NCBI GenBank assembly: GCA_963738405.1 | Contig: CAVTWJ010000002.1 | Coordinates: 1 to 64,000, forward strand | Length of the DNA stretch: 64,000 nt | Direction: 5' to 3' | Source: a candidate division FCPU426 bacterium | Lineage (GTDB): Bacteria > Oederibacteriota > Muellerivitia > Muellerivitales > Muellerivitaceae | Part shown: positions 348-27,939 of the stretch, piece after piece | Layout of the letters: every line of letters starts with the position of its first letter | Numbering within the stretch: the first letter of the stretch is position 1 | Program-made: the position numbers and the translations under genes | Notes under the pieces: generated by a model | Databases searched by the model: none | Told to the model about the DNA's origin: nothing | Seen by the model: the letters and a program-made list of their open reading frames with translations, nothing else

Positions 348-380
348 TTAAAACCCCTTTACCACCCAAAAATCCATTTC

Positions 381-524: not shown

Positions 525-541
525 TCAAATTGCCTTTTCTT

Positions 542-3106: not shown

Positions 3107-3145
3107 CAAACTCAAAAATTTTCACAACCACAACGTCAATTTTTC

Positions 3146-3295
3146 ACCACCAAGACACCAAGTCACCAAGAACAGCAAAGACTTTACATTTCAAAAAACA
3201 ATTCGCTTTTGTTTCCAACCCTATAATTTTGGGGTTCGGTCCTAAACCCATTTTCTTTGCCTTGGTCTTACTCGGTGCCTTGGTGTCTTGGTGGT
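3146..3295. mobile_element. MITE-like element, copy B
   Basis: accaccaagacaccaagtcaccaagaacagc ... ctcggtgccttggtgtcttggtggt; core similar to copy A. Confidence 0.75.
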
Positions 3296-3319
3296 AAACC
3301 TTTCTTCGTTTTTCCTTTC

Positions 3320-4200: not shown

Positions 4201-4222
4201 TACGACAAAAAACTAAATTTTC

Positions 4223-4326
4223 ACCACCAAGTCACAAAGACACCAAGAAAAGCAGAGGATATAGCTTCCGTTTTAACCCCATTTTCTTTGCCTTGGCCTT
4301 ACTTGGTGCCTTGGTGTCTTGGTGGT
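4223..4326. mobile_element. MITE-like element, copy C (shorter core), between the tandem riboswitches
   Basis: accaccaagtcacaaagacaccaag ... cttggtgccttggtgtcttggtggt. Confidence 0.72.
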
Positions 4327-4343
4327 TAATTGGGCTTTTAAAT

Positions 4344-5976: not shown

Positions 5977-6197
5977 AACACATCCTTTAAAGTTCAGGCC
6001 ATTCCATTACCAATTTAAAATTTTTAAACGTAACGGGCCATGTTTATCTAATAAATCCAGAACAAAATTCGTTGCACGAAACCCATAAATTCTACTTCCT
6101 AAAGGAGCCGGACCAACATTCAACACTTTTTTGTCCCTCGTCCCGACCCAACCGGGGTTTCCCGTCGGTGCCAACACTCCTAACGACTTCCTTACCC

Positions 6198-6269
6198 TCA
6201 AACCCTCTTTGTCCGCCAGGTCGCTTTGGGAGGGTCACCCAGGATAAATTCCCCCTTCACCAGCCAGGA
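6198..6269 (-). repeat. Diverged copy of the 3' end of gene 21795..22484
   Basis: Translates SWLVKGEFILGDPPKATWRTKRV*, versus SWLVKGEFILADPPKTTGRTRRG* at 21795-21866. Confidence 0.85.
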
Positions 6270-6284
6270 AAACCGCAAGTGCCC

Positions 6285-8036
6285 CTACGGCGAAGTCGCG
6301 ACCTTCCCATTACCTTGAGACAACACCACAAACTCCCCATTTCCAAAGGTCACGAAAGACCATTGGGCTTTGCTGGGAAGACTTTGGAGCGTCCAAGTCA
6401 TTCCATCCGGTGAAGTGGCTGCGGTTGTGCTATTACCAGCCAACACAATCGCCACGAATTCCCCATTCCCGTAGGCCATTGAATTCCAGTCATTGCTATT
6501 GGGCAGTGTGCTCGCCGTCCATTCAACCCCGTCCGGCGAGGTCGCTGCCGCCGCGCTATTATTCCCAGAAATCACCACAAATACTCCGTTTCCATAACAT
6601 ACCGATCCCCAATACTGTGAACTGGGAAGGGTTCGGGCTGTCCAAGTGATCCCGTCGGGTGAGGTCGCTGCCGCCGCGCTGGGTCCCGCCACAACCGCCA
6701 CAAATTCCCCGTTTCCATAAGACACTGATCCCCAATACTGTGAACTGGGGAGGGACCGGGCCGTCCAAGTGATCCCATCCGATGAAGTCGCTGCCACCGC
6801 ACCAGAACCATCTGAACCATAGCCCACCGCCACAAATATCCCATTCCCAAAGGTCACGGAAACCCAGTCCTGTGAGACGGGGAGGGAGCAAGCCGTCCAA
6901 GTGACCCCATCGGGCGAGGCCGCTGCCGCCGAGTTTCCACTAGCAACCGCCACAAATTCCCCGTTCCCGTAAGTCACGGAAGTCCAGAACTGTGAACTGG
7001 GGAGGTTTTGAAGCGTCCAGGCGATCCCATCCGGCGAGGTCATCGCCACCGTACTGCGAGACACCCCCGAGACCGCCACAAATTCCGCATCCCCGTAAGT
7101 CGCGGAAGTCCAGAACTGTGAACCAGGAAGGGTATGAGCTGTCCAGGACGATCCCGGCACCAGGGTGGGGCTTGTGGTTGGCGTTTGGCTCGGGTTCGGC
7201 GACATGGTCGACGTCGGTGTGTCGCTGGATGCCGTTTCAGTCATCGTGGGACTCAGGGTTGCGGTCAAAGTATACGTTGGCTCGGATGTGGAAGTATCCA
7301 TAGGGGTTGGAGTAGAGGTCGGAACCGGAGACGCTGTGGATGTGGGCTCCGGTGTACCGCCCGGAAGAACAAAAGTCGTTGGTTGACCCAGCGGGGTTAA
7401 CCCGCCTTGATACCATAATTCCGTACTGTGGATGAAAGTCTGTCCGGCGTTATTGGACCAATCGACATTTTCATAAGCCGCCAAGAGCGTCACGCAGCCG
7501 CTTGCCATGCCCGCCAGGGTGAAGACCCCTCCATTCCCGCCCGGAGCGCTGGCATAAGGATGGCTTGGATCAAACCCCGTGTTATGGATATAGGGGAATA
7601 CCCCGTTCCAACCCCACCCCTCAAACTGAAATGCGGTTCCGGTCATACTGTCCGAAAGGGTCACTGCCGTCCCCAAAGGGGCGGCATCGTTGCAAATCAC
7701 GATGGCATAGGTGACAGGAAAGCTGTTATCCACCTCGGTGATCCCTCCCCCATCCACCGCTTCCGCCATGCGGATACCGGCCGTGGGAATAACGGTCGGG
7801 GTAACCACACTGGTTTGGCTTGGTGTAGCAGGCGTTGGGGAGTTCGTAGCCGGTGGAGTGGTATCGTGGGTCGGGCTTTGCGTGACCGGAATATAAGTGT
7901 TCGTGACGGTCGGGGTGATCGTGGGGGACGATGAGGGGTTGCTGGGCGGGGCCGTGGGATTATCGTTTTTGTTGCCGCAGGAAAAAAAGAACGCCATCAT
8001 GGAAAACAGGAAGAAGGAAAGTACAAAACGAACCAT
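6285..8036 (-). CDS. Lipoprotein with Pro/Thr/Ser linkers and a C-terminal repeat (probable beta-propeller) domain
   Basis: Lipobox-like FFSC; about 6-7 repeats of ~43 aa (W.SV.YGNG.FVAV...AAAxSPDG.TW); start placed at MVRFVL. Confidence 0.75.
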   Translation of the reverse strand: MVRFVLSFFLFSMMAFFFSCGNKNDNPTAPPSNPSSSPTITPTVTNTYIPVTQSPTHDTTPPATNSPTPATPSQTSVVTPTVIPTAGIRMAEAVDGGGITEVDNSFPVTYAIVICNDAAPLGTAVTLSDSMTGTAFQFEGWGWNGVFPYIHNTGFDPSHPYASAPGGNGGVFTLAGMASGCVTLLAAYENVDWSNNAGQTFIHSTELWYQGGLTPLGQPTTFVLPGGTPEPTSTASPVPTSTPTPMDTSTSEPTYTLTATLSPTMTETASSDTPTSTMSPNPSQTPTTSPTLVPGSSWTAHTLPGSQFWTSATYGDAEFVAVSGVSRSTVAMTSPDGIAWTLQNLPSSQFWTSVTYGNGEFVAVASGNSAAAASPDGVTWTACSLPVSQDWVSVTFGNGIFVAVGYGSDGSGAVAATSSDGITWTARSLPSSQYWGSVSYGNGEFVAVVAGPSAAAATSPDGITWTARTLPSSQYWGSVCYGNGVFVVISGNNSAAAATSPDGVEWTASTLPNSNDWNSMAYGNGEFVAIVLAGNSTTAATSPDGMTWTLQSLPSKAQWSFVTFGNGEFVVLSQGNGKVATSP

Positions 8037-8234
8037 GGAATTTCGCAAAGGGACCCTCAATGAACCAGAAATGGTTATTGGGTCCAACCGTCGGAACCAA
8101 CCACCGCTCCCCCATGTCCTATTAAACTCTCATTTGAGAGGGTGTCAACGAGCCCAATCAATATCCCATGTCCTAATATTTAAACAGTCACAAGCGTGAA
8201 AAACCTTAAAAATTAACGCGGAAACCTATTAAAC

Positions 8235-8297
8235 TCACTTGGTACGCCATGTCGTCTTGGGAGGGCCGCCAAGGATAAACTCCCCCTTCACCAGCCA
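8235..8297 (-). repeat. Second diverged copy of the 3' end of gene 21795..22484
   Basis: Translates WLVKGEFILGGPPKTTWRTK*. Confidence 0.85.
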
Positions 8298-8318
8298 TTA
8301 TCCCCCTCAGAAAATTCT

Positions 8319-8921
8319 TTATGAAACCTCAAATAGAATCCGGAGCCTCGTTTTGGAATCGATGGGAACATTGTCCTTGGCCGCTGGCTTGAATTGCCAT
8401 TTGGAAGCAGTTTTCAAAGCGATGGCGTCCAATTCATCGTTGCCGCTGGAATCCAAAAGCCGAGGGGTCACCCCCCCCTGGGCCGTGATGAGGAATTCAA
8501 TGACCACGTTGGTTTTCAGGTTTTGGTCCCGCAAATAGACGGGAATGACCGGTGCCGGAGCGTAAAAGGCTACGGGCCCATGGGTGGGCCCCAGGGCCGG
8601 TCCCGCGTCCACCTGATTTTGCTGCTCGGGGGCTTTAGGCGGTTCCTTTTTCTCCACTTTCTTCCTGGGGCTTTGCTTATGGCTGAAAACCACCTCATCC
8701 TCGTCCTTCACGGCGGTAGCGCCGGTCAAATGGGCGTTGGCGGGCAATTGGATGATCTGGGCCTCAATATAATCAGTCGAATCAAACGGATTTTTAAAAA
8801 GAGATAGATGCCCTAATCCCAATGCGAGAAAGAAGAGAAGTTCCAATCCCGCCGCGATCAAAGCGGCCTTCCAAATTCGCTCTTGACCTTCTTCAAGGTC
8901 GTAAATTCCGGGATTCGTCAT
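8319..8921 (-). CDS. tonB: Energy transducer TonB
   Basis: N-terminal TM helix, Lys/Pro linker, TonB_C-like domain (SSGNDELDAIA...WQFKPA); follows exbBD. Confidence 0.85.
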   Translation of the reverse strand: MTNPGIYDLEEGQERIWKAALIAAGLELLFFLALGLGHLSLFKNPFDSTDYIEAQIIQLPANAHLTGATAVKDEDEVVFSHKQSPRKKVEKKEPPKAPEQQNQVDAGPALGPTHGPVAFYAPAPVIPVYLRDQNLKTNVVIEFLITAQGGVTPRLLDSSGNDELDAIALKTASKWQFKPAAKDNVPIDSKTRLRILFEVS

Positions 8922-9331
8922 TACTTGTCCTTCCCCGCTTCGGCCACGAGCGCAAATTTCCTTACCCCCACCTCTTTCGCCTTGTCCATGGCCGAAACCA
9001 CCAGCCCATAACCCACGCCCTCATCGGCGTTCACAATCACCACCGCCTGGGGGTCGGCCTGCATCTGGTAGGTCAATTGGCTTCCCAGCGTGTCGAGGGT
9101 TACCGCCGTCTTGTTGACCATCAGCGATCCGTCTTTCTTGACAGTCAGGATGATGTTTTGCTTCATGGTTTCGGGTTTTCCCGACATCTTGGGCAATACC
9201 ACCTTAACGCTGTTGATGCGGGTCATGGCCAGGGACGAAACCATGAAGAACACCAACAGAAAAAAGATTACGTCGATCATGGGAATAATCTCGATGCGGA
9301 CCCTTTTGAGGGGCCTTTGGCGTATTTGCAT
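8921..9331 (-). CDS. exbD: Biopolymer transport protein ExbD
   Basis: IEIIPMIDVIFFLLVFFMV motif; start reassigned to MQIRQR after GGAGG. Confidence 0.92.
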   Translation of the reverse strand: MQIRQRPLKRVRIEIIPMIDVIFFLLVFFMVSSLAMTRINSVKVVLPKMSGKPETMKQNIILTVKKDGSLMVNKTAVTLDTLGSQLTYQMQADPQAVVIVNADEGVGYGLVVSAMDKAKEVGVRKFALVAEAGKDK

Positions 9332-9351
9332 CAGGACACCTCCCGGCAAAA

Positions 9352-9532
9352 TTCACCACCAAGGCACCGAGACACCAAGGGAAATAAAGATTTATTGATT
9401 TTAACCGCCCCCCTCAAGAGGTCACTTTTTGAGTTATTAAGCATTCGGAGTGAATAAACATTTTTGGGTTTGTGTTGTTTAATCCAAGTTTGCCTTTCGG
9501 TGTTCTTGGTGTCTTGGTGCCTTGGTGGTGAA
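9352..9532. mobile_element. MITE-like element, copy D, between exbB and exbD
   Basis: ttcaccaccaaggcaccgagacaccaag ... cttggtgtcttggtgccttggtggtgaa; core differs from copies A and B. Confidence 0.72.
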
Positions 9533-9548
9533 AATTCAGGTTTTCGCA

Positions 9549-10184
9549 TTAGCCTTTTTTCCTTTCGGAGGCCATGCGGGCTTCCATCAGCCGGGAGGCG
9601 GCGGATTCCATCTCATATAGGAAGTTCTTAATCAGGGTGTTGAAGTAATTGTGGGCGATCACGCAAACCAGCGCGATGACGAGGCCCGTGGCGGTGGCGA
9701 TCAGGGCTTCGGCGATACCCCCGGTAATGGAATAGGGGTCGTCCACCCCGCTTTGGGTGAGGACCTTAAAGGAGCCCATCATGCCGATGATGGTGCCCAA
9801 CAGCCCCATCAGGGGCGCGATGGTGATGGTGGTATCGAGGATATGCACATATTTTTCAAGCCGAGGAACCCAGCTTTCCCCCGCGTTCTTCATGGCGATT
9901 TCCATTTCCGCCGCCGAATTCTTGAAATGCTCCAGCCCGGCCTTCAGCACCACGGCCACGGGGATCATCTTTCCCTCGCAGAGTTTTAATCCCTCCTTCA
10001 GTTCGCCTTGGCGGGCCATGTCCAGAACCTTTTGAATGAAGCCATGAGGCGTTACGTACTCTTGATGAAAAGCTTTCCACCGCTCGACGATCACCGTCAG
10101 GGCGATCAGCGAGGATAAAAGAAGCGGGATCATCATGAACCCGCCGTGAAATAGGAATTTGAATCCGTCGAATAAACCGTTCAT
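9549..10184 (-). CDS. exbB: MotA/TolQ/ExbB proton channel protein
   Basis: APLMGLLGTIIGM and GGIAEALIATATGL motifs. Confidence 0.92.
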   Translation of the reverse strand: MNGLFDGFKFLFHGGFMMIPLLLSSLIALTVIVERWKAFHQEYVTPHGFIQKVLDMARQGELKEGLKLCEGKMIPVAVVLKAGLEHFKNSAAEMEIAMKNAGESWVPRLEKYVHILDTTITIAPLMGLLGTIIGMMGSFKVLTQSGVDDPYSITGGIAEALIATATGLVIALVCVIAHNYFNTLIKNFLYEMESAASRLMEARMASERKKG

Positions 10185-10292
10185 TCCATCTTCCTTTCAA
10201 TATTTGAAATAATATCGGCATAACGCCAGTTGGTTCCTGAATTCCAGCTGGCGTTTGCCATGACGCGTTTGCGATCTAAATCTTTACTACGG

Positions 10293-12670
10293 TTAAATCT
10301 CCTTCGACAAACGGAAAATAATCTGGCGGCCCGCCTCGAAGTGGTTGCCGTTGAATCCGTTGGCGATGAAAATCGTGTAGGGGTTGTCGAATAGGTTCAG
10401 CACGTCCAAGCTGGCCTTGAGCCCCTGGAGCCCGCTTTCCTTCTTAAAGGCGTAGCCCACCGTGGCATCCATCGTGAAATGCGATGGAAGCCTCAAAGAG
10501 TTGTTGTCCCCCGTGCTCAAACCCCCGCCGAAGAGCCCCTCCGCCGTAATCCAAAGGTCCCCCGGGTTATAGGTCAGCCCCCCGTTGACGGTATGGATTT
10601 GGCAATGATCCAGAAATTGGTAATCACTGGACCCGTAGGCGGCTCCCGGTATGGCGAAGATGCCCCCCGCCAATCCCTCGCCCTTGGCGATTTCGTAGGA
10701 ATAATTCGCGAAATCCGACCATTGGCTGTCGATCTTGCCGTTGACGGTCACTTCCACACCGTATGCATAGCCCTTCTCAAAGTTATAGGGTTGGGCGATG
10801 GCGGTATTCAAAAGCTGGGTTTCATCCAGCATATCGACCGCGTCCTTGTAATAGCCCGTGAGGGTGAACAGATGGTCTCCCGCCTGTTGGCTGATCCCCG
10901 CCTCGTAGTAATCATCCTTTTCGGCCTTGATGTCATAGGGCGTCAATTGCCCTTGGCCAAGGTTGTTGAAGGTATCCCGCAGGTTCTCGGCGGGCGCGGG
11001 CATGAAAAGCTTGCCGTAGAAGAAATGGATCTTGGTCTCCTCGGTGGGAAGGATATTCAACCCCACGCGCGGCTCCACCAGGCTGTCGTTGGACGTGGTA
11101 TCGGGAAAGACGAACTGGGTAGCGTCCACCCTCACGCCCGCGTTCAGGACCAGCCACTTGGCCAGGGTCAAGTCATCCTGCAGGTAAACCCCTTCCTGGT
11201 AGCCGTTGTCCGTGGAATCGTCCTCACTCGTGGTCGTGACCGGACTGCCGCCCGTGGAATCGACGAAGACCACGTTCACGGGGCCGAAGGACTGGGTCCA
11301 GACGGCCTGGACACCGGCCTTGATCAGGTTGTTGTCGTCGGCGCGCAGGGTGTAGTCCGCCTGAATGCCCAAATTGTTGCTGGTGCGGTCCTCGGAAAAG
11401 GAATCCCCCGTCGTCTGGAAAAGGGTGGTCGCCATCAAGTCGTCGGCCAGGTCGTTGGTGAAGACCACGTTGGACTGCTTCCAATAGGGGGCGATTTGAA
11501 GGAACGAATTGTCCCCAAAGGCGTGTTTCCAGGCGAATTCCACGTACTTGTTGGATTCGCTTTGGGTGTCGTTGGTGCCGTTGGGCACGTAATTGAACGG
11601 CCCGTTGCCGTAGGGGTCGGTGTAGGTGTTGAAGAAGGGGCTGTCGGGGCCGAACGAGGAAGGATAGTTCGGGATCTGATAGAACTTGTTCTCACTGAAC
11701 CCGATCAAGGCCAGTTTATTCGTGTTGTCGGCCACCCAATCGAACTTCACGAACTGGTTGGAACCGTAACTCTGGTCGTGAACCGCCTCCGAGCCTCCTT
11801 GGGAATCGTCCGTCGGAACCGCCGGGTTGGGCGTGTCCAATCCCCGGTCGGTGTAGGTATTGCTGGTCGAGAGGAAATAGTGGAAATCCCCCGAGGCGTC
11901 CGACCCGCCGTAATTGGCGAAAGGGGTGAGCTGGTTGTAGGAACCGTAGCTCAAACCGATATTCCCGCCCGGAGTCGTGGTCCCCGACTTGGTGACGATA
12001 TTCACCACCCCGGCCAGGCGCGTCCCGAATTCCGAGGGCAGGCCCCCGGTGAGGACGTCCATGTGGTCGATGTTGGCCGTGGCGAAAGCCTCCCCGAAGG
12101 AGCCTCCCGTGGAATCGGGCAGCTGGATGCCGTCGATCTGGTACTGCAAATTGGCGTGGTTCCCGCGGGCGAAGATCTGCCCGAAGGGGCCTTCCACCAT
12201 CCCGGCGTTGGTGGTGTAGAGCAGTTTGGGCAGGGAAGCCGTGTCCCCCCCGGAAGCTGGGCAATCTCCTCCGAATTGATGGATTTACTGCTAGAGGAGG
12301 AGTTGGTGATGAGGTGGCGCTTGGCCTTCACCGTCATTTGGATTTCACCTGCTGGTGAAAGGGTAATATCCAAAGAGGTGGAGTTTCCCGAAACCGCCAC
12401 TGTTCCCTGGTAAAGGTTGAATCCCTCGGCCTGGACGCTGACCTGGTAATCCCCGATCGTCAGGGGGAAAACCTGGTAAGTCCCGGTGGCGGAGGCCGTC
12501 AAATCCTTTTCCATTCCGTTCCCCGTGATGGTTACCTTGGCATTTGGAACCGCCACGCCCTTGTCGTCCAAAACCGTACCGGATAAAGCGCCGTCCACCG
12601 TGGCCCAAACCTTGGCCGCCGGCAGAAGGCTAAAAAACACGGCTAACAAAAACATGCATCGTTTAAACAT
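10293..12670 (-). pseudogene. TonB-dependent receptor with N-terminal carboxypeptidase-regulatory-like domain, frameshifted at a G7 tract
   Basis: ORF 12002..12670 gives the signal peptide, CarboxypepD_reg-like domain and plug start; ORF 10293..12200 gives the rest of the plug and barrel; one extra G at 12245-12251 joins them. Confidence 0.85.
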
Positions 12671-12770
12671 TGATAAGCTCCTTTAAGGTTTTCTTCGTAC
12701 TTCTTCAACATTCATTCATTGGTTGCGGGCCCTTCGTAGGGCTTGTGGACGCATCGCTTTCAAGGAATAT

Positions 12771-13052
12771 TCAACAGGGGGGACCGCGTCCCCGATGAAA
12801 GAAAAGACGGGCGAGTTCAAGGCGGTTTTCTCTAGTCGCCGCCCTGAAAACGAAAAACAGCGGAAAGAGGGCCGGCGGCGCCGGCGGGGCTACCGCCTGG
12901 GAACCCGTATGGGACCAATGGCAGTAAGCGCAATTGTCCTCGGTCTCATGGTGGTGGTGGCGGTGAAAGAAGCCCTCCCCCGTCGAGACCAGCAATAGGA
13001 CGAGCGTCATCGTTAAGGGAAGCGTCCGTTTTAAGACTATCTTGAGATTCAC
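12771..13052 (-). CDS. DUF2946/CruR-like leader protein 1 (His run, CxxC, C-terminal RGPP)
   Basis: TM segment-HRHHHHE-CAYC...RGRGPPC*; 100 nt upstream of the TonB-dependent receptor. Confidence 0.8.
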   Translation of the reverse strand: MNLKIVLKRTLPLTMTLVLLLVSTGEGFFHRHHHHETEDNCAYCHWSHTGSQAVAPPAPPALFPLFFVFRAATRENRLELARLFFHRGRGPPC

Positions 13053-13065
13053 TGATCCCCCAAAT

Positions 13066-13824
13066 TTAAAATCCGAACCAGGATTTCTTCGGCAAATCCA
13101 ATTTCTCGCAAGTCATGCGGTACAGGCACCAGCCCTGGTTGTCCTGGTCGTAATTCGTCCCCACGCCCAAGGTTCCGAAAACCGTGAGAGGGATGTCCAT
13201 GGTGGAATCAACCGTTTTTCCATCGATCATCTTGACGTAAATCCACTGGTTCAGTTTCGGGTACGCGCCATAGCAACAGGTCATTTGGTTTTGGGCGAGA
13301 ATGAAAGAAAAAACTTTCCCTTTGTCGTTCACGTCCATGGGGATCATGAACCCGGCTACCGAAACCTTTTGCCCATCCAACCCGAGGATGGAATGCGGGA
13401 CTTCGTTTTGGAATTTTTCCTTCATGGCAGACTGGTCTTTGGGTTCAGCCACCAGGTCCGGCGTCTCGGAAGGAAAACCCGCAAGCGTGTTGAAGCCCAC
13501 CTGATAAAAACCGTCTTTTTGGGCGAAAGGCGGTTTCCAGGCGGGGGGGCCTTGCGGGGCCGAGGCGCTGGACAGGCTCGCCGGCTGTTCGGTTTCAATT
13601 CGGGTGGTCTCCCGCGCGGTTTGACTCTTCCAGTACTGGTTCATGTTGGGCGCGTTGTTCGCCCTCCAAAGGACATAGGTCAACAAGCCGAACCAGACCA
13701 CGCTGCAGGACAACATGAACCAGTATTTCCAATCCCTGGGCGGTATGACGGATTCATATTTGATTTTATTTTTTTTCCCCCCGGGCCAGAGACGGGGGAG
13801 GTCCTTCACCGTTTTCGTGTCCAT
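13066..13824 (-). CDS. DUF3299-like protein, paralog 1
   Basis: LDGQKVSVAGFMIPMD...FIL...TCCYG..P..NQWIYV. Confidence 0.8.
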   Translation of the reverse strand: MDTKTVKDLPRLWPGGKKNKIKYESVIPPRDWKYWFMLSCSVVWFGLLTYVLWRANNAPNMNQYWKSQTARETTRIETEQPASLSSASAPQGPPAWKPPFAQKDGFYQVGFNTLAGFPSETPDLVAEPKDQSAMKEKFQNEVPHSILGLDGQKVSVAGFMIPMDVNDKGKVFSFILAQNQMTCCYGAYPKLNQWIYVKMIDGKTVDSTMDIPLTVFGTLGVGTNYDQDNQGWCLYRMTCEKLDLPKKSWFGF

Positions 13825-13825
13825 C

Positions 13826-14440
13826 TCACCAATCCGCCTTTGGAATGACGACCTTATCCGAGACCATCCGGTAAAGGCTCCATCCCGTGTCCTCTTTCTT
13901 TTGCTCCCCCACCGAAAGGGTTCCGAAAACGGTGATGGGAATATCCATCATCACCTCGGCGGTTTTGCCCTTTTCCATCTCCACGAACATCCATTCGTTC
14001 ATTTTGGGAGTGATGCCGTAGCAGCAGGAGGCCTGGGTCCGGGCGAGAATGAAGGAAGTGGCCTTCTGGTCCGCATCGTCCGTGTCCAGGGGAATCATGA
14101 ACCCCACCACCGCGACGCTCACGCCGTCCAATTTTTTGACGAAATCGGGAATGGGAAACTTTTTCTTCTTGAGCCTGATATGGGGGTCGATCTCCTCCTC
14201 AATCTCAGGGGCGTCATAATCGAAATGAGCCAAGGTATTCCATGTCACATAGGGGTGGTTTTCGACCATGGAAAAAACGGTGGCCGGGGCGGACTTCAAG
14301 TCAATGGGCTTGATGGGCAGGGGATACCCATCTGCCGACGGTTGGTTTTGCCCTTGGATTTTACTCATGGAAAGCATCATTCCGAAGGCCAGGAGTATGG
14401 CCACACGGATGCCCCAGCCCTTCATTAATTCTTTATTCAT
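13826..14440 (-). CDS. DUF3299-like protein, paralog 2
   Basis: LDGVSVAVVGFMIPLD...ASCCYGITPKMNEW. Confidence 0.8.
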   Translation of the reverse strand: MNKELMKGWGIRVAILLAFGMMLSMSKIQGQNQPSADGYPLPIKPIDLKSAPATVFSMVENHPYVTWNTLAHFDYDAPEIEEEIDPHIRLKKKKFPIPDFVKKLDGVSVAVVGFMIPLDTDDADQKATSFILARTQASCCYGITPKMNEWMFVEMEKGKTAEVMMDIPITVFGTLSVGEQKKEDTGWSLYRMVSDKVVIPKADW

Positions 14441-14480
14441 TGCTTTGCCCCCTTTTCACGGAAAGACCTTTCGCTGTTTT

Positions 14481-15134
14481 TTATTTCATCCACTGATTTG
14501 CATTTTTGAGAAAAGCCACTTTGTCCGAAACCATCCGGTAAAGGCTCCATTGGCTTGTGTGTTTTTCGCCCACGGACAAAACCCCAAATACCGTGACCGG
14601 GACATCCATGACGGCATCCGCTGTTTTGCCCTCGTCCATTTGAACGAAGATCCATTCGTTCATCCTGGGTGCGATGCCAAAGCAGCAGGTCATTTGGCTT
14701 CGGATCAACATAAAGGAAGCGGCCTTTCCGCCGTCCGTGTCCAAATCCACCGGGATCATGAACCCCACAACCGCCACGCTGACCCCGTTCAATTTTTTCA
14801 CCGCTTCCGGTATGGGGTATTTATCCTTCTTCCGTAAATCGGGGTCATTCTCTTCGTCCTTTCCGGGAACGTCATAAGGGAACCGGGCCAAAGTGGCCCA
14901 AGTCACGAAGGGATGGTCCTCCACCTGGGCATACATCGACCCCGAATCCGACTGGGAATCGTCAATGGTTACGACGCTGCACGGAGTGGCCGTGGTTTTT
15001 CCGTAATCGATCTCAACCTCCGCTCCCGGTAGAATTGAAATCAGGATCGTGGAGAAAAAAACGGCCCCCCCAATAATGAATATTCCCCTTTTCACGCGCG
15101 GATCATCCAAGAAACCGCCTTGCCCATAAACCAT
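14481..15134 (-). CDS. DUF3299-like protein, paralog 3
   Basis: LNGVSVAVVGFMIPVD...TCCFGIAPRMNEW. Confidence 0.8.
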   Translation of the reverse strand: MVYGQGGFLDDPRVKRGIFIIGGAVFFSTILISILPGAEVEIDYGKTTATPCSVVTIDDSQSDSGSMYAQVEDHPFVTWATLARFPYDVPGKDEENDPDLRKKDKYPIPEAVKKLNGVSVAVVGFMIPVDLDTDGGKAASFMLIRSQMTCCFGIAPRMNEWIFVQMDEGKTADAVMDVPVTVFGVLSVGEKHTSQWSLYRMVSDKVAFLKNANQWMK

Positions 15135-15226
15135 GCCGAAAGAAGTCCGCAGAAGGCCGGAATCATTTCAATGGCCAAATCTTTTAGAATCCGGCCTTTC
15201 TGCGGCAAATACAAAGCGGCCACCCT

Positions 15227-15709
15227 TTACTTGACCCAATCCGGTTTTTTCACGCCTTCATTCCCTTCCGGATACAAAAACCAGACGTTTTTAAAATTCG
15301 TTCCCCTGGCATTGATACGAACGAACTCCCCTTGAAACCGGGCGGTTCCCTTGAGCTTGGGGGAGATGATCTGGTATTGGGAAGTGTCGCCGACCGTTTC
15401 ACCGGTCAACGCGTTAGCGATGGGCTTCAACTTGAGGGCCCAATCTTTCCCTTGGCCCTTCACCAGGATTTGAAGGGAAGACTGGGAAATCCTCACCGGG
15501 TTTTCCGCTTCCCCATCCAACACGAACGCGTCCAGTTCCCCGGTAGAAGGGTCGAGCAAAAGCTCCACGTGGGAAAATTCCTCACCCAACACCACCAATG
15601 TTCCATGGTGCGGAGGATGGTGCTCGTGGGCTGAAACCGGACCCGCCATGAACATCAACAGCGAGATCACCAACGAAGCGATTGAGGCCATTTCGATTAT
15701 TTTTTTCAT
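15227..15709 (-). CDS. Secreted His-rich putative metal-binding protein
   Basis: Signal peptide ending VSA, followed by HEHHPPHHG...HVEL. Confidence 0.7.
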   Translation of the reverse strand: MKKIIEMASIASLVISLLMFMAGPVSAHEHHPPHHGTLVVLGEEFSHVELLLDPSTGELDAFVLDGEAENPVRISQSSLQILVKGQGKDWALKLKPIANALTGETVGDTSQYQIISPKLKGTARFQGEFVRINARGTNFKNVWFLYPEGNEGVKKPDWVK

Positions 15710-15737
15710 TTTTAATTCTCCTTTTTTTATTGGGTGA

Positions 15738-17012
15738 TTAAGACAAGGGGTCCAAATTACGGGCTACGTCGGTGGAATAGGCCTTGAGGGCGGGGACCAA
15801 CCCCGATAAAGCCCCCAAAACCGTCATGCAAACAGGGACAAATAATAGGGAAATATGGAACTGGAACACTTCCAGCACCACGCCGGTTTGTTCGCGCACC
15901 ACCAGAGCGGCCACCGCAAAGAGGGCCAGGTAAATCACATAACCCACGAGCGATCCCAGTCCTGCGATAGCGGTAGCCTCCAGCACGATGGCGGAAAAGA
16001 CCGTGGTCCGCCTGGCGCCCAGAGACCTTAGAATCGCGAATTCCCTTCGCCTTTCGTTCAGCGTGTTGTACAGGCTGGAGAGGATGGAAGCGGCGGCCAC
16101 CAGCATTACCAGGTAGGCCACCAGGGTGAGGATCTTCGTCACCCAACCCATCTTGTCGAAAAGCTCGGCCATCACCTTGCCGATGGGCCAGGCCAGGGTC
16201 GCCACCTTGCCCTGTCGGTTGATGGTCTGGTCCAGCATGAAGCCCGCCTGTGGGCTGTAAAACTTCAGCATGACGGCGGAAACTTCCTTGTTGGCGTCGG
16301 GTATTTCCACGCCCTCTTTGGCCGTATATTCCGTTCCCGTTCCGCGCAGCACATGGCCCTTCATGCGGTAGACGTCGTCGATCGGGATCCACAAAACCCG
16401 GTCCGAGGGTGTATTGGTGGGCTTCAAGACCCCCACGATCTGGAAAACTTCCTCATGCTGCATGTTGGGGTCAAAATAAAGCCCGTGGAAAGGCTTGAAG
16501 GTGGACCCCACCCCGAGCCCCAGCTTGCGGGCCACGAAGCTTCCGATGACCGCTTCCTTTTTCGCGGGGTCAAAGACACGCCCCCCCGGCTCGACTTCCA
16601 GGTGCTTGTCCTTTTGGTACTCAAAGCGGGTGAAGATGTCATTGGTCGTGCCGACAATGCGGTAGCCGTAATAGTTATCCCCCACCGCATAGGGAACGGC
16701 CAATTCGACTCGAGGGTCGTTTTTGACCTCTTCGTAAAGCGTCCAGGGTATGTTGCCCGGTGAGGTTTCCAGTTGGTAGACAGCGTTCAACACCAACTGC
16801 AACTGGCTACCCCTCGCTCCCAGGACGGCGTCATATCCCACACGCCCTCCCGTAAAAGCCCCACGGGTTTGGTACTGAATGGAAAAGACCGCCATGGTCA
16901 ATCCAGTCGCCAGCCCCACCGACATCACCGTGATGACTGTGGAGAGGGCATGCTGTTTCATGCTTCGCTTGACCAGAAAAAACAGGTTCTTCAGGTTTTC
17001 CAGGGGGCTCAT
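15738..17012 (-). CDS. ABC transporter permease (MacB/FtsX type; ZrgC/PA4065-like)
   Basis: GARGSQLQLVLNAVY, GDNYYGYRIVGT and LNERRREFAILRSLGA; start reassigned to MSPLEN. Confidence 0.88.
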   Translation of the reverse strand: MSPLENLKNLFFLVKRSMKQHALSTVITVMSVGLATGLTMAVFSIQYQTRGAFTGGRVGYDAVLGARGSQLQLVLNAVYQLETSPGNIPWTLYEEVKNDPRVELAVPYAVGDNYYGYRIVGTTNDIFTRFEYQKDKHLEVEPGGRVFDPAKKEAVIGSFVARKLGLGVGSTFKPFHGLYFDPNMQHEEVFQIVGVLKPTNTPSDRVLWIPIDDVYRMKGHVLRGTGTEYTAKEGVEIPDANKEVSAVMLKFYSPQAGFMLDQTINRQGKVATLAWPIGKVMAELFDKMGWVTKILTLVAYLVMLVAAASILSSLYNTLNERRREFAILRSLGARRTTVFSAIVLEATAIAGLGSLVGYVIYLALFAVAALVVREQTGVVLEVFQFHISLLFVPVCMTVLGALSGLVPALKAYSTDVARNLDPLS

Positions 17013-17704
17013 ACGGTCACCCCCTTCTTGGCGGCCGATTCCACGGCCCGGTTGATGCGGCTCAGATTTTCCACCTTCTCGAACTTGGACAAGACTTCCT
17101 TGTCGTGGCTGACCAAAAGAAGCGCCGCCCCATTCTCCTTGCAAATTTCCCGGATCAAGGCGAGGGATTCCATGGCCCTCACGTGGTCCAGGTGGCCCGT
17201 GGGTTCGTCGGCCAGGACTAGCTGGGGATGGTTGGCCAGCGCCCGGGCCACGGCAACCCTTTGCTGTTGGCCTACCGACATCTGCCGGGGAAGATAGTGG
17301 AGGCGCTTTTCCAACCCCACCCGTTTGAGAAGGTCCCGCGCGTAGGATTCATTCACGCCCCTTCCGAACATCATTCCCAACATCACGTTTTCCAGGGCCG
17401 TATAGCCTTGGAGCAAGTTGAAGGTTTGGAAAATGTAGCCCAGGCTTTGGGCCCGAAGCATATCCCTCCGGCTTTCCGGAAGGGATTCCAATTCCTTGCC
17501 CGCGAGGCGGATGCTTCCCTCGTCGGCTTTCAAGATTCCCGCGATGAGGTTCAAGAAGGTGGTTTTTCCCGAACCGCTTTCACCCGCCATGGCCAACTGC
17601 TCGCCCTGGCCGAGCGCGAAAAAATTCACATGAACCACCAACTGACTGCCGCCTTCCGGAGACGGATAAGTCTTTTTTAAGTTTTTTATTTCAAGAACTT
17701 TCAT
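17009..17704 (-). CDS. ABC transporter ATP-binding protein (LolD-like)
   Basis: Walker A GESGSGKT, signature MSVGQQQR, LADEPTG. Confidence 0.93.
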   Translation of the reverse strand: MKVLEIKNLKKTYPSPEGGSQLVVHVNFFALGQGEQLAMAGESGSGKTTFLNLIAGILKADEGSIRLAGKELESLPESRRDMLRAQSLGYIFQTFNLLQGYTALENVMLGMMFGRGVNESYARDLLKRVGLEKRLHYLPRQMSVGQQQRVAVARALANHPQLVLADEPTGHLDHVRAMESLALIREICKENGAALLLVSHDKEVLSKFEKVENLSRINRAVESAAKKGVTV

Positions 17705-17888
17705 TTTTTCCTCGTAATCTTCCAATGGTTAAATTAGGAATAATCGAAATCAATTCATGAAGAGCTTTGGTCCAAACGGGGAAAGAAAATGAAAAGGGGT
17801 TGGAAAACTTGAAATGAATGGAACTGTGCCTGAGGTGCGGTTAATTAAAGCCGGACCCGTCCCCTATTCATTTGTTTCCCGTTTGAAG

Positions 17889-18182
17889 CTAGGAAAGAAC
17901 GGCTGGAGGGGCGCGGCCCGTGGGCAGAATGAAGCGGAAACTGCGGTAGGGCTGGCAAAAAACGAGCCCCGCGAAAAACAAGAAGAAAAGCGGGGCCAAA
18001 TCCACCAGGGGGGCGGTGGAAAAATCCGAACTGCTGAAGGCCTTATGAAAACTGCAGTACGCGCAATCCGCGTCTTCCGTCTTTTCATGGTGGTGGTGGA
18101 TATACCCTTCGGATAATTCCACCCCGGCGAAGGCCAGGAAGACCGCGAATGCGATGAATTGTAACCACTGGCGCGAACGCAT
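17889..18182 (-). CDS. DUF2946/CruR-like leader protein 2 (His run, CxxC, RAPP)
   Basis: TM segment-IHHHHEK-DCAYC...PTGRAPPAVLS*; upstream of the ABC operon. Confidence 0.8.
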   Translation of the reverse strand: MRSRQWLQFIAFAVFLAFAGVELSEGYIHHHHEKTEDADCAYCSFHKAFSSSDFSTAPLVDLAPLFFLFFAGLVFCQPYRSFRFILPTGRAPPAVLS

Positions 18183-18297
18183 CAAATCTCCCTTGATTTG
18201 CGACTGCCCGTTATCATCCAAGCGGTGCCAGGAAATGTCAATTGCAGGGGGCGAAATAATAATAACCGGATGATGTAGATGTCTATTATTGCGCTTC

Positions 18298-19671
18298 CTA
18301 TTGGGAGGCGCCGGTTTTCAACTCGAACTGAACGGGTTCGACGGGCAGGTCTTCCGGCGAAAAGGTAAATTGAACCGTGAGATCCCCCCCCTTCGCCGGG
18401 GTGAAAGTTAAATCAGGGCAATTGTCCCACCCTTGAAAAGTGTCCTTTCCAAATAGTTGGAGTTCGCCCCTGTCCTTTGGCCATCGGCCGTATTTAATCC
18501 GGAATTCCTGGATAACGTCTGTCAAATCCTGAACCAGCGTCTCCCGAATCTCCTGTTCAAATCCGGTGTACCCCTCCACCGGGTCATCGGGTATATCCGG
18601 GGCGACGTTGAAGTCAACCCTTGTCATGGGAATCACAAACCTGTCGAAGAAAGTGACCCGGCAGACATTCCCTTGGTTTGGCCCGACGGTAAGGTGGGGA
18701 TAGAGGCTCAAGTCGAAATTCCATTTGTTTTTCGCGATATAGGCTCTGAGCTCGGCAACCCCTGAGGGCCAGTGAGAGCAATGGGTATAGAAGTCCTGAA
18801 GGAGGCTGCTCATCGGTCCGGACAGGATGAAATGGAGGTTATTTTTTCCATCCAGGGCCCATTGGCGCAAACCATTATTTCCTGTTTTTTTCGACAAGAG
18901 GTCCAGTTTTTCAACCGCGATCCGAAAAAACTCGTTAATCCCTTCCGTTCTGCCGCTTTCTCGAAAATAGCTTTCCAGCCAGGAGCAATCAACAATGATG
19001 TCCACGGAGCGGGCCTTGCTATATTGCCAACCCTGGAGTTTATCCATTTCATTTTTGATGAGTTTTTTCCAGAAGTTCGGGAAGCGCAGTTCATCATATT
19101 CAAACCGCTGTTTTTCCTTATTCCAGACGAAGATGGAAGGCGCGTCGTAATTCTTGCTTCCCCGGTTGTAAAAAACCATCTCCCGGGTCCCGTCCCCGCG
19201 GAGGTCCACGAACGAGGGGGCCTCCCCCGCCGAGCCGGAGGAACCGTCAAAAACGATTCGGGGTTTCAGCCCATCCCACATCAGGAGTTTATACGCGGTG
19301 TAATCTCCCATAGGGGAATCGAAATAGGAATATCCGAAAACGGGCGGCAAATCATCGCGGAAGGTGCCGACAATGACCGGCTCGGGCTTGTTGAGCCTGC
19401 TCCAGACCAACCGGGAATCCGAATCCACCATAAACAAATCGGCGACCCGGTCCGATCCCTTGTCCAAATGAACCGCGTAGAGGGTCAGGGCCTTGCCATC
19501 CGCGTTCAGGCCGGACGGATATTTTTTGATACTTGTGATTTTCATTGTGGAATCGATCAAGGCCGAAATGGGCGAGGGGATGTTTTCGCCGGAAGAGGGT
19601 GTTTGGGCTGTCAGCCCGGGGGCCAAACCTGAAATAAACAAGAAAACCCAACCGACGTGCAAAGTTCTCAT
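18298..19671 (-). CDS. Secreted hypothetical protein (457 aa)
   Basis: Signal peptide; DLRGDGTREMV resembles an FG-GAP/Ca-binding loop; two weak internal repeats (WPS..ELRAY / WPK..ELQLF). Confidence 0.7.
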   Translation of the reverse strand: MRTLHVGWVFLFISGLAPGLTAQTPSSGENIPSPISALIDSTMKITSIKKYPSGLNADGKALTLYAVHLDKGSDRVADLFMVDSDSRLVWSRLNKPEPVIVGTFRDDLPPVFGYSYFDSPMGDYTAYKLLMWDGLKPRIVFDGSSGSAGEAPSFVDLRGDGTREMVFYNRGSKNYDAPSIFVWNKEKQRFEYDELRFPNFWKKLIKNEMDKLQGWQYSKARSVDIIVDCSWLESYFRESGRTEGINEFFRIAVEKLDLLSKKTGNNGLRQWALDGKNNLHFILSGPMSSLLQDFYTHCSHWPSGVAELRAYIAKNKWNFDLSLYPHLTVGPNQGNVCRVTFFDRFVIPMTRVDFNVAPDIPDDPVEGYTGFEQEIRETLVQDLTDVIQEFRIKYGRWPKDRGELQLFGKDTFQGWDNCPDLTFTPAKGGDLTVQFTFSPEDLPVEPVQFELKTGASQ

Positions 19672-19754
19672 GGTGCGCCTCGCGCATGAATATTGAATCC
19701 AACATCCATTCTTTGCCGACCTCAGTACAAAACCGGTTCAGATCAAAACACAAT

Positions 19755-20273
19755 CTATGGCGCAAAATTCTCCTTGAGGTGTTCCTGCTGTTCCTGCTGC
19801 CGCCGACGAAAGGCCTGGCATTGGGGGCAATTGCAGCCATTTTTGAAATACCATTCGAAGGTTTTGAGGGGTTTCTTTTTTTTCAAGGCCGGTTGGGTGA
19901 CAGCTCCGGACGAAACACCATCCTGGGGATTCATGGACATGGCATCGGACGCCGATAAGGCCGGTGTGCTTGAAAGGGCAGGTTTGGGGGCCTTATCCGC
20001 CGTCACCTGGGCCTGGACCGGGAGGACAAACCCAATCGCCAAGGCCAAGATCAGGAATGGGGCGGCGGCGGTGCATTGTAAAGCGCGTTGAACCTGCGGA
20101 TGGGCATGACCATGAGGGTTTTTCCCGACTTCCATTCGCAGGATTCCACTGTTTTTCCGTCGTTCGTCGCGAAAAGGATCCATTTTCCATTTCCCTCCAC
20201 CCTTATGAATTGGCTCGGCTGTTTTTTCTTCCACATTAATTTCCCGCGGCTGCTCAAAACGGAAAAACTGCAT
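19755..20273 (-). CDS. Small secreted hypothetical protein with CNCPQC (true start uncertain, probably near 20050-20090)
   Basis: Signal-like LILALAIGFVLPVQAQ, then CNCPQC; the 5' part of the listed ORF overlaps the upstream gene. Confidence 0.45.
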   Translation of the reverse strand: MQFFRFEQPREINVEEKTAEPIHKGGGKWKMDPFRDERRKNSGILRMEVGKNPHGHAHPQVQRALQCTAAAPFLILALAIGFVLPVQAQVTADKAPKPALSSTPALSASDAMSMNPQDGVSSGAVTQPALKKKKPLKTFEWYFKNGCNCPQCQAFRRRQQEQQEHLKENFAP

Positions 20274-20836
20274 TGCGAAGACCCCACGGACAGGTTCCGA
20301 ACCAGGATCATCGCATCATCATCCGATATGGCCGCTATCGATCCTTGGCCAATCCCAAACTCGTGTTTTTCCCAGCCATCGACATCGAAAATCCGGACCA
20401 AACCGTCGTCAAGGGCCGCCTTCCCGTCCCCAGGGGTGAAAGCGATGTACCTTCCCCCATTCGAGACGACAAGGGATTTCCCTTTTTGGGTCAAGATTCT
20501 TTGGCCCCCGCGGTCATAACCCCTGATTTCCCCGTCCGACAACTCAAAAAACGACCGGCCATTCCCCTGGCTGACGGCGGCATGTAGAACCAAATAGGAC
20601 GTGTTTTTCGACCATTGCGTTTTTCCTTCCTTCAGGAAAATCAGGGAGGTTTTCACCGCCTGATCTGGCAAAGCCGGGTGTTCGGTCTGTATTTGAATGT
20701 CATAAAGCCTTGGGGCCGTCATCGGCTTTTTAAAGATTTGGGCTTGCCCCTCGATCGGACCCATAAAAATTCCAAGAGCTAACATAAGCCACCCAAGCCT
20801 TTTGACCATGGCCTTATCCGGGTTCAGGGTGGCCAT
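20051..20836 (-). CDS. Secreted hypothetical protein
   Basis: Signal peptide; beta-rich segments (VSNGGRYIAF, AISDDDAMIL) suggest a partial propeller. Confidence 0.6.
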   Translation of the reverse strand: MATLNPDKAMVKRLGWLMLALGIFMGPIEGQAQIFKKPMTAPRLYDIQIQTEHPALPDQAVKTSLIFLKEGKTQWSKNTSYLVLHAAVSQGNGRSFFELSDGEIRGYDRGGQRILTQKGKSLVVSNGGRYIAFTPGDGKAALDDGLVRIFDVDGWEKHEFGIGQGSIAAISDDDAMILVRNLSVGSSQCSFSVLSSRGKLMWKKKQPSQFIRVEGNGKWILFATNDGKTVESCEWKSGKTLMVMPIRRFNALYNAPPPPHS

Positions 20837-21224
20837 GATCCCTGCAATGCTGGCAAAGCCTAAGGTTCACCATATGCCCCGCGGCCAAACCCAACGCGCC
20901 GGGCACCGCCATCCACAAACCCGGAACGCCGCCGATCAAAAGTTTTCCCGCCACGATCATCCCCGTACAAAGGTAAAGGACCAGCATCAGATGAATTTTT
21001 CGGTGGAAATGGAAACCATAGCTATAACTGAGCGTGGCCAAAAATATGGACCCGGCGATGAAAAAAAGCTCGATTTTCCGGTCATACAGGAAAGTCGCCC
21101 CCAACCAGGGCAATAGGACCAGTAAAAGCGGGAAAACAACGCAATGGATAGCGCATGTAAAGGACATGAGTGCGCCGATCCTGTCCAGATAGGGGGTTGG
21201 AAGCGTTTGCCATTTATGAACCAT
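20814..21224 (-). CDS. MerC-domain membrane protein
   Basis: LDRIGALMSFTCAIHC, GFHFHR and GHMVNLRLC; four TM segments. Confidence 0.85.
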   Translation of the reverse strand: MVHKWQTLPTPYLDRIGALMSFTCAIHCVVFPLLLVLLPWLGATFLYDRKIELFFIAGSIFLATLSYSYGFHFHRKIHLMLVLYLCTGMIVAGKLLIGGVPGLWMAVPGALGLAAGHMVNLRLCQHCRDHGHPEPG

Positions 21225-21384
21225 GTGGATGTAACCTCAAATCGTCATTACCTCAGATGATGAATAATCTTGGAGTGAACGGAACGGAAAGAAGGGGGAA
21301 AAGCGGGAAACCTAATGGTTTGATAGGACTACGGACGAAACCTAAAAGGCACCGGCGCCTTCCGCCCCATTCCCGTTAATGAAT

Positions 21385-21678
21385 TTAAGAAAAAATCGCG
21401 GGGGGAGCCCGGCCGGAATGGGCCGAGAAGGCCACCGGCTTGAAAGAAGGGTGGAAAACGGCAAGGGTGAACAACAGCAGAAACACCGGCACCAGGTTGG
21501 GGCAGGCGTTCGGAAGGTCGGTTTGGGAAGCGTGGTTATAGTAACTGCAAAAGGCGCAGTCCTGCTCCTCGCTCTCGCTGTGGTGATGGTGGTGCAGGAA
21601 CCCGTGGGCGGAACCCGCGAGGCCGAAAACCATCATCATGGCCAGCGCTAAAATTCTCATCCTGCTCTTGGTAGGCAA
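21385..21678 (-). CDS. DUF2946/CruR-like leader protein 3 (His run, CxxC, RAPP)
   Basis: Signal/TM segment-LHHHHHSES-DCAFC...HSGRAPPAIFS*; upstream of the MerC-like gene. Confidence 0.8.
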   Translation of the reverse strand: MPTKSRMRILALAMMMVFGLAGSAHGFLHHHHHSESEEQDCAFCSYYNHASQTDLPNACPNLVPVFLLLFTLAVFHPSFKPVAFSAHSGRAPPAIFS

Positions 21679-21794
21679 CGAAGGCTCCCGTTGTTGATGA
21701 AACTAGGGTTCATCATGCCGATACCCTCTAAAAAATGTCAATAAGGCGCCTATGCTGTAGAGGTCCAGCAACGGTCATACCAAATCTTCGACTC

Positions 21795-22484
21795 TCAACC
21801 CCGCCTAGTCCGCCCCGTCGTTTTGGGAGGATCGGCAAGGATAAATTCCCCCTTCACCAGCCAGGAGATACCAAAGAAGATCACCGCCGCCCCCTCGAAG
21901 AAAAAGACGATTCCCCAATATTGGTTCTGATCCGTTTTGAAAAAGAGATCATAGATCACAATCGCCGCCAAACAGGCCAGCATGACCCACCCGCAAACCC
22001 GGTAAACCCCGTTACGTTGTACCTTCTTGGCAGTCATGGTATTGACCGATCTGGTCTTGGTGAATTGAACCAAACTGATGAAGGCCAGGGTCGCCAAGAA
22101 AAGGGCCGCGAACCCCAGGTGGAACCAGCCTCGGATCACGTCTGGTTTCAAAAGGTCGTTCACCGGTGTGCAAGGAACCAAGGCCACCAAAAGTGCCGAA
22201 AAACCCGCAATGCGGGCCAACACCCGGTCCCTAATATCCCATCCCCGGTAACAGCAGAGGAACACCCCCACCGCCGCCATGACCCCCACGAAGATGTTCC
22301 GGGGCGCGGGCAAGCCCGAGTCGGAGTAGTAAAAGTCGCTGATGGAAGGTTCTATATGGAAGCCATTGGCCAGCCACAAGGCAAAGGGCAGGGCGATCCC
22401 CAAAAGGCCCACCAACCGCCGCAAAATTAGTTCGGAGATCACCAAAGAGCCGACCTTCCCGATCATAAGAGCCTCCGCTTCCAA
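21795..22484 (-). CDS. Multi-pass membrane protein (DUF998-like)
   Basis: LRRLVGLLGIALP, SISDFYYS, RNIFVG, RNGVYRVCG and FGISWLVKGE; about six TM segments. Confidence 0.75.
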   Translation of the reverse strand: MEAEALMIGKVGSLVISELILRRLVGLLGIALPFALWLANGFHIEPSISDFYYSDSGLPAPRNIFVGVMAAVGVFLCCYRGWDIRDRVLARIAGFSALLVALVPCTPVNDLLKPDVIRGWFHLGFAALFLATLAFISLVQFTKTRSVNTMTAKKVQRNGVYRVCGWVMLACLAAIVIYDLFFKTDQNQYWGIVFFFEGAAVIFFGISWLVKGEFILADPPKTTGRTRRG

Positions 22485-27683: not shown

Positions 27684-27771
27684 ATTTTCTCCTTTACCAT
27701 TTCCGGTAAAAATCAAAACCAAAATACATTCTTCACCGCCAAGAAAACCCAAAGTCATCAAAACCTAATTT

Positions 27772-27911
27772 TTCACCACCAAGACACCAAGAAAAACCAA
27801 AGCAAAGAAATTGGTTTAGACCCGAAACTAAAAACAAAGGCAGGAAACAAAAGGTTTTTTTAATCCATGAAATCTTTGCTGTTCTTGGTGCCTTGGTGTC
27901 TTGGTGGTGAA
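27772..27911. mobile_element. MITE-like element, copy E (inverted relative to A and B), with a degenerate extra end at ~27732-27760
   Basis: ttcaccaccaagacaccaag ... cttggtgccttggtgtcttggtggtgaa; core resembles the reverse complement of copy A. Confidence 0.75.
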
Positions 27912-27939
27912 CATTTCGCCGTTGTTCCTTTTTGTTTTT

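Follow-up and report, generated by a model that had tools for sequence, protein, structure and literature searches.

The 3' end of a gene for a DUF998-related multi-pass membrane protein occurs three times in contig CAVTWJ010000002.1 of a candidate division FCPU426 bacterium (assembly GCA_963738405.1), and the copies enclose two blocks of genes in a structure resembling what old mobile islands would leave behind after losing the genes for their own integration. We analysed positions 1 to 64,000 of the forward strand, hereafter referred to as the window. The best reading, held at roughly even odds (probability about 0.5), is that two site-specific integrative elements accreted in tandem at an attachment (att) site in the 3' end of this gene, which we call the target gene. 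The order of the array would be attL – module 1 – attI – module 2 – attR, and its parts, in the direction of transcription, are as follows.

21795..22484, minus strand: target gene, DUF998-related multi-pass membrane protein of 229 amino acids (aa) from a TTG start or 223 aa from an ATG start
21795..21866, minus strand: copy A, 3' end within the target gene, attL-like; core 21847-21863, TGA 21795-21797
8298..21794, minus strand: module 1, 13,497 nucleotides (nt), every gene on the minus strand, three operons with a CruR-like gene first in each
8235..8297, minus strand: copy B, orphan 3' end, attI-like; core 8281-8297, TGA 8235-8237
6270..8234, minus strand: module 2, about 2 kb, a single 600-aa open reading frame (ORF) at 6285-8087, lipoprotein
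6198..6269, minus strand: copy C, orphan 3' end, attR-like; core 6250-6266, TGA 6198-6200

A previous reading of the same DNA, made from the letters alone (the sequence-only reading), had described the gene end as recurring in orphan direct repeats at 8235-8297 and 6198-6269, each about 15–20 nt after the stop of the preceding gene, each ending in TGA and all with one common start. Every one of these coordinates was confirmed. All three copies lie on the same strand with an open frame and a TGA stop, which follows 20 codons in copy B and 22 codons in copy C; the translations are WLVKGEFILADPPKTTGRTRRG for copy A, WLVKGEFILGGPPKTTWRTK for the copy at 8235 and WLVKGEFILGDPPKATWRTKRV for the copy at 6198. 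The core of copy B starts 21 nt past the stop of the TonB gene (TAA 8319-8321), and that of copy C 18 nt past the stop of the lipoprotein gene (TAG 6285-6287). The common start proved to be an identical 17-nt block, TGGCTGGTGAAGGGGGA, which a pattern search of the window located on the minus strand at exactly three sites, 21847-21863, 8281-8297 and 6250-6266; by chance 0.03 matches are expected, and three or more copies occurred in none of 100 shuffles. No site beyond the three appeared when up to two mismatches were allowed. A repeat search returned a single three-copy family of 76 nt (6194-6269; 8225-8300, 78%; 21791-21866, 84%; identity relative to the reference copy), with start-to-start distances of 2,031 and 13,566 nt. 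When the 229-aa protein was used as tblastn query, the matches were its own gene and the two orphans (E values of 3e-07 and 1.3e-06), the next one having an E value of 0.75. The search for further copies that had been proposed was run with blastn-short, tblastn and the pattern search, and no fourth gene-end copy was found in the window.

Each orphan copy shares its reading frame with the stop of the preceding gene, that of TonB (8298-8321) and that of the lipoprotein (6267-6287). Between this stop and the copy there are two more in-frame stops at the 8235 copy and none at the 6198 copy; read-through into the 8235 copy is therefore implausible. The left edge of the 6198 copy, with the last pre-core nucleotides and the first ten core nucleotides, has an exact 15-nt match at 45612-45626 on the minus strand within a cyclophilin-type gene; this match shows no extension (blastn-short E value of 0.006) and is probably due to chance.

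The divergence between the copies is of a coding type. Over the 60 nt that they share, pairwise identity is 50–51/60 without insertions or deletions, and the 13 variable sites are distributed as 2, 3 and 8 over codon positions 1, 2 and 3. None of these sites falls in the first 17 nt and all 13 fall in the next 43 (P=0.013), as would be expected of a crossover core; at third positions, 5/5 are invariant in the core, as compared to 8/20 variable across all third positions (P=0.05). The two orphans differ from each other in nine codons, seven synonymously and two non-synonymously, while 26% synonymous differences are expected at random (P=0.0018). This excess indicates that the ends diverged while they were translated, in separate lineages. 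Judged from these substitutions, the copies come from three diverged functional alleles and not from local duplication followed by neutral decay, in agreement with the sequence-only reading, which had taken the many synonymous differences as a sign of alleles once under coding selection. The similarity ends abruptly on the upstream side, the step in identity occurring at the same nucleotide in both orphans: downstream of the tryptophan codon at which the repeat starts it is 50–51/60, versus 16/36 and 17/36 matches to the gene over the 36 nt that precede this codon. There the orphans match each other at 11/36, and the mean of the null distribution is 9.1. The excess of the orphan-to-gene matches over the null is small (P about 0.015 and 0.007) and could represent a recombinase-binding half-site, or chance. 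In the other direction, the similarity between copy A and copy C persists until about +100 nt, counted from the start of the core.

The ATG start of the target gene, giving 223 aa, is the one in the database copy P0001. For the target protein, 92 homologues were detected, several of them with PF06197 or under the name DUF998; homologues with a precomputed PF06197 or an NCBI DUF998 name are 33–47% identical to it, and the protein itself has no Pfam match at E≤0.01. A conserved C-terminal motif, FGxSWLVKGE, forms the end of the last membrane helix, and its residues W, K and G are invariant in an alignment of the target protein with 14 homologues (15 sequences). The repeat therefore starts exactly at an invariant tryptophan codon. 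The closest homologue, P0002 (87% identity), ends in SWLVKGEFILGDPPKTTWRTKQG and is nearer to both orphans than to the present end of the gene, which would be expected if displaced native-type ends are retained. Among the 14 aligned homologues, a tail of the DPPKTTWRTK type occurs in P0002 only and is absent from the 13 more distant sequences, indicating that all three ends, and hence their donors, stem from one narrow clade.

What was observed directly, and what the accretion model starts from, is the layout of the repeats with their shared boundary and identical core, together with surrogate ends that are intact and have diverged in the manner of coding sequence. Integration at the 3' end of the DUF998-related gene would have been site-specific and most likely mediated by a tyrosine recombinase. 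On arrival, each element would have carried its own last ~22 codons and stop beside the crossover core, and at each integration the prior gene end would have been displaced downstream as an orphan; owing to the element-borne end, the target gene would have stayed intact. Copy C would thus be the original chromosomal end, copy B would have been brought by the lipoprotein element, and the present end of the gene, copy A, would have been supplied by the copper module, as module 1 is termed below. Frame and stop are preserved in both orphans, so that loss of the DNA between any two of the copies would restore a full gene. From this arrangement we infer the recombinase, the sequence of events and any mobility today.

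As in integrative arrays, direct repeats bound each element, one of them lies in the 3' end of the target gene, and the core at the common boundary is identical (17/17 nt in three copies). Since neither module has recombination or transfer genes, both match the definition of cis-mobilizable elements (CIMEs), which is outlined together with the accretion scheme in PMC5704250; the scan for recombinases, which detected none, places them outside the definition of integrative and conjugative or integrative and mobilizable elements (ICEs, IMEs). As recombinase-less CIMEs, the two elements could now move only with an integrase acting in trans.

Several observations on the window weigh against this model. 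Scanning of 74 ORF translations covering the window yielded no match to an integrase, transposase or excisionase family, as the sequence-only reading had noticed, and ARAGORN identified no tRNA gene in the 64 kb. No match to the gene-end repeat, and with it no free form of the element, was found in phage or plasmid records. Tyrosine-integrase attP sites typically contain arm-type sites, for which there is little space, as the element-side coding sequence reaches to within 18–21 nt of the core and the element-side arms are almost nil; apart from short local repeats at 8111-8258, no arm-type repeats are present at the module ends, and none is common to both modules. The invariance of the core third positions is marginal (P=0.05), and codon preference could be its cause. 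Moreover, module 1 is not compositionally distinguishable from the flank: its GC content of 0.538 is within the range of the flank windows, and its tetranucleotide frequencies correlate with those of the flank 22485-64000 at 0.957, so that the atypical cargo composition which is usual, but not defining, for islands is not seen for this module. Module 1 also holds one of five similar intergenic inverted-repeat elements, located in the exbB–exbD gap, the other four being outside of it. The host-like composition and the shared intergenic element indicate that module 1 is either old at this locus or derived from a close relative. For module 2, the tetranucleotide correlation with the flank is 0.625, a value that is uninformative because the module is short and repetitive. 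The sole compositional outlier is the gene beyond copy C:

4600..5976, minus strand: first gene past the array, 458-aa hypothetical protein; GC 0.38 and third-position GC (GC3) 0.37, as compared to about 0.54 and 0.70 in its neighbours

Since the flank past copy C is itself of low GC content, a clean native flank is not evident.

The gene family in other genomes does not speak for the model either. At least 556 relatives occur among 185,579 species-representative genomes; the best 80 loci, whose proteins share 35–46% identity with the target protein, were examined. An orphan gene end within 10 kb was present in 0 of the 80 loci, three of which have a second W-x-x-K-G match without flanking similarity. 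Direct repeats of the gene end of ≥15 nt were likewise absent from all 80; the longest exact ones were 13–14 nt (downstream in two loci, upstream in seven), which is chance level. Among the 72 first downstream ORFs of these loci, scanned from a set of 143 first and second ones, none matched a recombinase family, and 12 of the 72 were without any family at E≤1e-8. These counts (0/80, 0/72) indicate that the gene family as such is no hotspot. The sequence-only reading had proposed an integration hotspot at which incoming DNA restores the gene end; an att-like array is still the best-fitting model for this locus, but the hotspot as a property of the family is not supported. The proposed comparison of relatives for variable cargo or repeats downstream of the gene had distant homologues only (35–46% identity) to draw on, and 0 of the 80 loci showed the pattern. 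For 17 of 19 queries, proteins of the modules and flanks were found near the target-gene homologues in 0 of 80 loci, the exceptions being a generic ABC ATPase (9 loci) and a histidine kinase (13 loci). The copper module is therefore not a usual neighbour of this family. Homologues of the first module gene with 86, 82, 74 and 55% identity reside on contigs of 1101, 13309, 1238 and 1917 bp, respectively, and neither a full nor a partial target-gene homologue was recorded on a contig of any of these four lengths. This hints indirectly that the first module gene and the target gene are not always adjacent; contigs often break at such junctions, however, and their size is just a proxy.

On the sequence evidence, an att array nevertheless fits better than any rival explanation, given the sharp boundary, the identical block, the surrogate ends, the coding-type divergence and the flush, self-contained cargo. 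The rival that survives best, albeit as an improbable one, is insertion without a recombinase: DNA from close strains, as a circular or linear donor with a homologous gene end and downstream genes, may have entered by a Campbell-type single crossover or by homology-facilitated recombination at the WLVKGE stretch, the homologous segment thereby being duplicated. The host-like module 1 with its shared intergenic repeat, the origin of the three ends from one narrow clade and the lack of a recombinase in the window would all agree with such events. However, two independent insertions would need the identical 5' boundary to the nucleotide, and a perfect identity of only 17–26 nt, with about 85% over 60 nt, would support RecA-dependent exchange poorly. 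If the donor was circular and had that boundary, this would itself imply an earlier site-specific excision.

We regard it as unlikely, and somewhat more so, that the orphans are relics of paralogues, i.e., of two extra copies of the gene, one upstream of the lipoprotein gene and the other upstream of the low-GC gene, which were reduced to their last ~22 codons. The residual upstream similarity to the gene (16/36 and 17/36, versus the null mean of 9.1) and the coding-type divergence are what such relics might retain, but both remnants would need to be truncated at one and the same codon, identity falls from about 85% to about 45% at a single nucleotide instead of decaying evenly, and the orphans show no likeness to one another in the upstream stretch (11/36). 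Nor did the searches detect any further fragment of the gene.

Similarly doubtful is a variant of the accretion model in which the locus is a working platform and not decayed debris. A recombinase encoded elsewhere in the genome would stack recombinase-free, operon-sized cassettes at the 3' end of the gene as its dedicated docking site, each tagged solely by a ~60-nt mimic of the gene end flush with its last stop; such an integron-like capture without hairpin sites might serve to trade copper-homeostasis operons among close relatives.

It is highly unlikely that a ~76-nt cis-element, such as a 3' untranslated region, terminator or regulatory RNA, was reused after three transcription units, its coding likeness being secondary: every copy does lie directly after a stop or at a gene's own end, but the variable sites (2, 3 and 8 by codon position) reveal protein-coding constraint, and a structured RNA or DNA site was rejected, since none of six folds (three copies, both strands) was more stable than its shuffles (z +0.74 to +1.55), no Rfam family matched the repeat at the gathering threshold, and no terminator-like site is present on the copies. 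An assembly artefact, in which strain variants with differing downstream genes were concatenated, has an equally slim chance: the sequence appears to be a metagenome-type assembly, its own genome being absent, along with close kin, from the 185,579 species representatives, and a frameshift in a run of seven G suggests some base-level error, but joins from the TonB or the lipoprotein end into mid-gene would need shared sequence upstream of the tryptophan codon, where there is none, the exact shared stretches are just 17–26 nt long, and the copies differ like true paralogous sites.

The cargo of module 1, which the sequence-only reading had called a metal module of about 13.5 kb, consists of three operons, with assignments from Pfam.

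Operon a, minus strand: CruR-like a 21385-21678; MerC-like protein 20814-21224; secreted hypothetical proteins 20051-20836 and 18298-19671
Operon b, first part, minus strand: CruR-like b 17889-18221; ABC ATPase 17009-17725; MacB/FtsX permease 15738-17144
Operon b, rest, minus strand: His-rich periplasmic protein 15227-15709; three DUF3299 paralogues 13066-15134
Operon c, minus strand: CruR-like c 12771-13052; TonB-dependent receptor 10293-12670, frameshifted; ExbB 9549-10184; ExbD 8921-9349; TonB 8319-8921

Alignment of the three operon-first proteins showed small, paralogous DUF2946-like proteins with a signal-like N-terminus, a His run, an invariant CxxC motif and a C-terminal GR(A/G)PP motif. 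In CruR-like a, 45 residues separate CAFC from RAPP; in CruR-like c, which heads the operon of the TonB-dependent receptor, RGPP replaces RAPP. Their matches to PF11162 have E values of 1e-4 to 1e-3, just below the gathering score. As summarized in PMC9426467, CruR of Bordetella pertussis is a nascent peptide that senses copper and controls a downstream TonB-dependent transporter, with a motif spacing of 45 residues; the related CutF is described as acting via ribosome stalling (bioRxiv 10.1101/2025.02.05.636593). By the criteria of PMC9426467, the export signal, the CxxC motif, the RAPP-type end, the spacing of ~45 residues (counted in CruR-like a) and the first position in the operon correspond to CruR/CutF (DUF2946) copper-sensing leader peptides. 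The presence of CruR-like leaders at the head of all three operons sharpens the metal module, 13,497 nt in length, to a copper module.

The TonB-dependent receptor gene is split into overlapping ORFs at 12002-12670 and 10293-12200 on the minus strand. The split is due to a frameshift in a run of seven G at about 12244-12250, after which the plug-domain reading is taken up again in the other frame. Either the gene is a pseudogene or has a slippage site here, or the homopolymer was missequenced.

Module 2, the lipoprotein module that had been predicted in tandem with the metal module at ~2 kb, indeed comprises one lipoprotein gene. Translation probably starts from the ATG at 8037, giving a lipoprotein signal with FFSC at its end, and the product has a Thr/Pro-rich linker and about seven repeats of ~41 aa. 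The promoter region of this gene, 8111-8258, contains two pairs of direct repeats, CCCATGTCCTAWTA with its copies 54 nt apart and CCTATTAAACTC with its copies 107 nt apart; of the second pair, one member extends over the end of the 8235 repeat.

The protein encoded by the low-GC gene past the array had no Pfam, NCBIfam or PADLOC match, and its nearest Atlas clusters are widespread hypothetical proteins of ~450 aa, a few members of which carry DUF6236. This gene is probably a separate foreign insertion. The five intergenic elements of the window (377-531, 3142-3302, 4219-4333, 9351-9536 and 27760-27915) are about 115–190 nt long and have terminal inverted repeats of ~30 nt, each made up of three 8-mers (CACCAAGN three times at one end, its complement three times at the other), with variable interiors; they look like elements of the miniature inverted-repeat transposable (MITE) or repetitive extragenic palindromic (REP) type. 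The region upstream of the target gene is densely occupied by signalling genes, which encode two hybrid PAS histidine kinases, a GGDEF-EAL protein and three single-domain response regulators (27213-27761, 27940-28383 and 31223-31726). Two of these regulators are recent paralogues, a 65-nt stretch (27244-27308 and 27944-28008) being 78% identical.

Tandem stacks of islands that insert at the 3' ends of genes and restore those ends are already known, integrase-less members included; what this locus adds is its site in a DUF998-related gene, its lineage and its cargo. In Streptococcus thermophilus, tandem accretion is exemplified by the ICESt1/ICESt3-type arrays in the 3' end of fda. The present array resembles CIME accretion arrays in that its att repeats are direct and one of them lies within a protein-coding gene, at the 3' end, in its internal attI, in elements that keep both att sites although they lack integration and transfer genes, and in its intact target gene. 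It differs in that no functional partner element or integrase is found within the 64 kb, in that the repeat is a gene-end mimic of about 60–76 nt which is ~85% identical with only 17 nt invariant, and in that the coding sequence of the cargo abuts the core. SGI1 in trmE and the mobilizable genomic islands (MGIs) in yicC are gene 3'-end islands that carry a replacement end. As in these islands and IMEs of this type, an element-borne end restores the frame and the displaced end remains as a direct repeat; they encode their own integrase beside the att site, however, whereas none is encoded here. Like integron cassette arrays, the locus consists of stacked, promoter-proximal units, each ending shortly before a repeated sequence resembling a recombination site, with no recombinase inside. 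In contrast to integron cassettes, neither an attC-like hairpin (z +0.74 to +1.55) nor intI among the scanned ORFs was detected, one of the units comprises three operons over 13.5 kb, and the repeat is the end of a protein-coding gene. Among the papers listed under the name DUF998, none concerns integration, judged by titles and the beginnings of abstracts, and to that extent the target gene is not a reported site.

Of modest practical value, the 17-nt core provides an exact query for empty sites, other cargo and the missing integrase in related metagenomes. If the accretion model is true, the DUF998-related gene would be a new chromosomal docking site in an uncultured lineage, and the locus a clean case of recombinase-less islands persisting between att sites that are still usable. 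A whole set of genes for copper acquisition and tolerance, organized in three CruR-led operons, would then form a unit that a single recombination event could add or remove.

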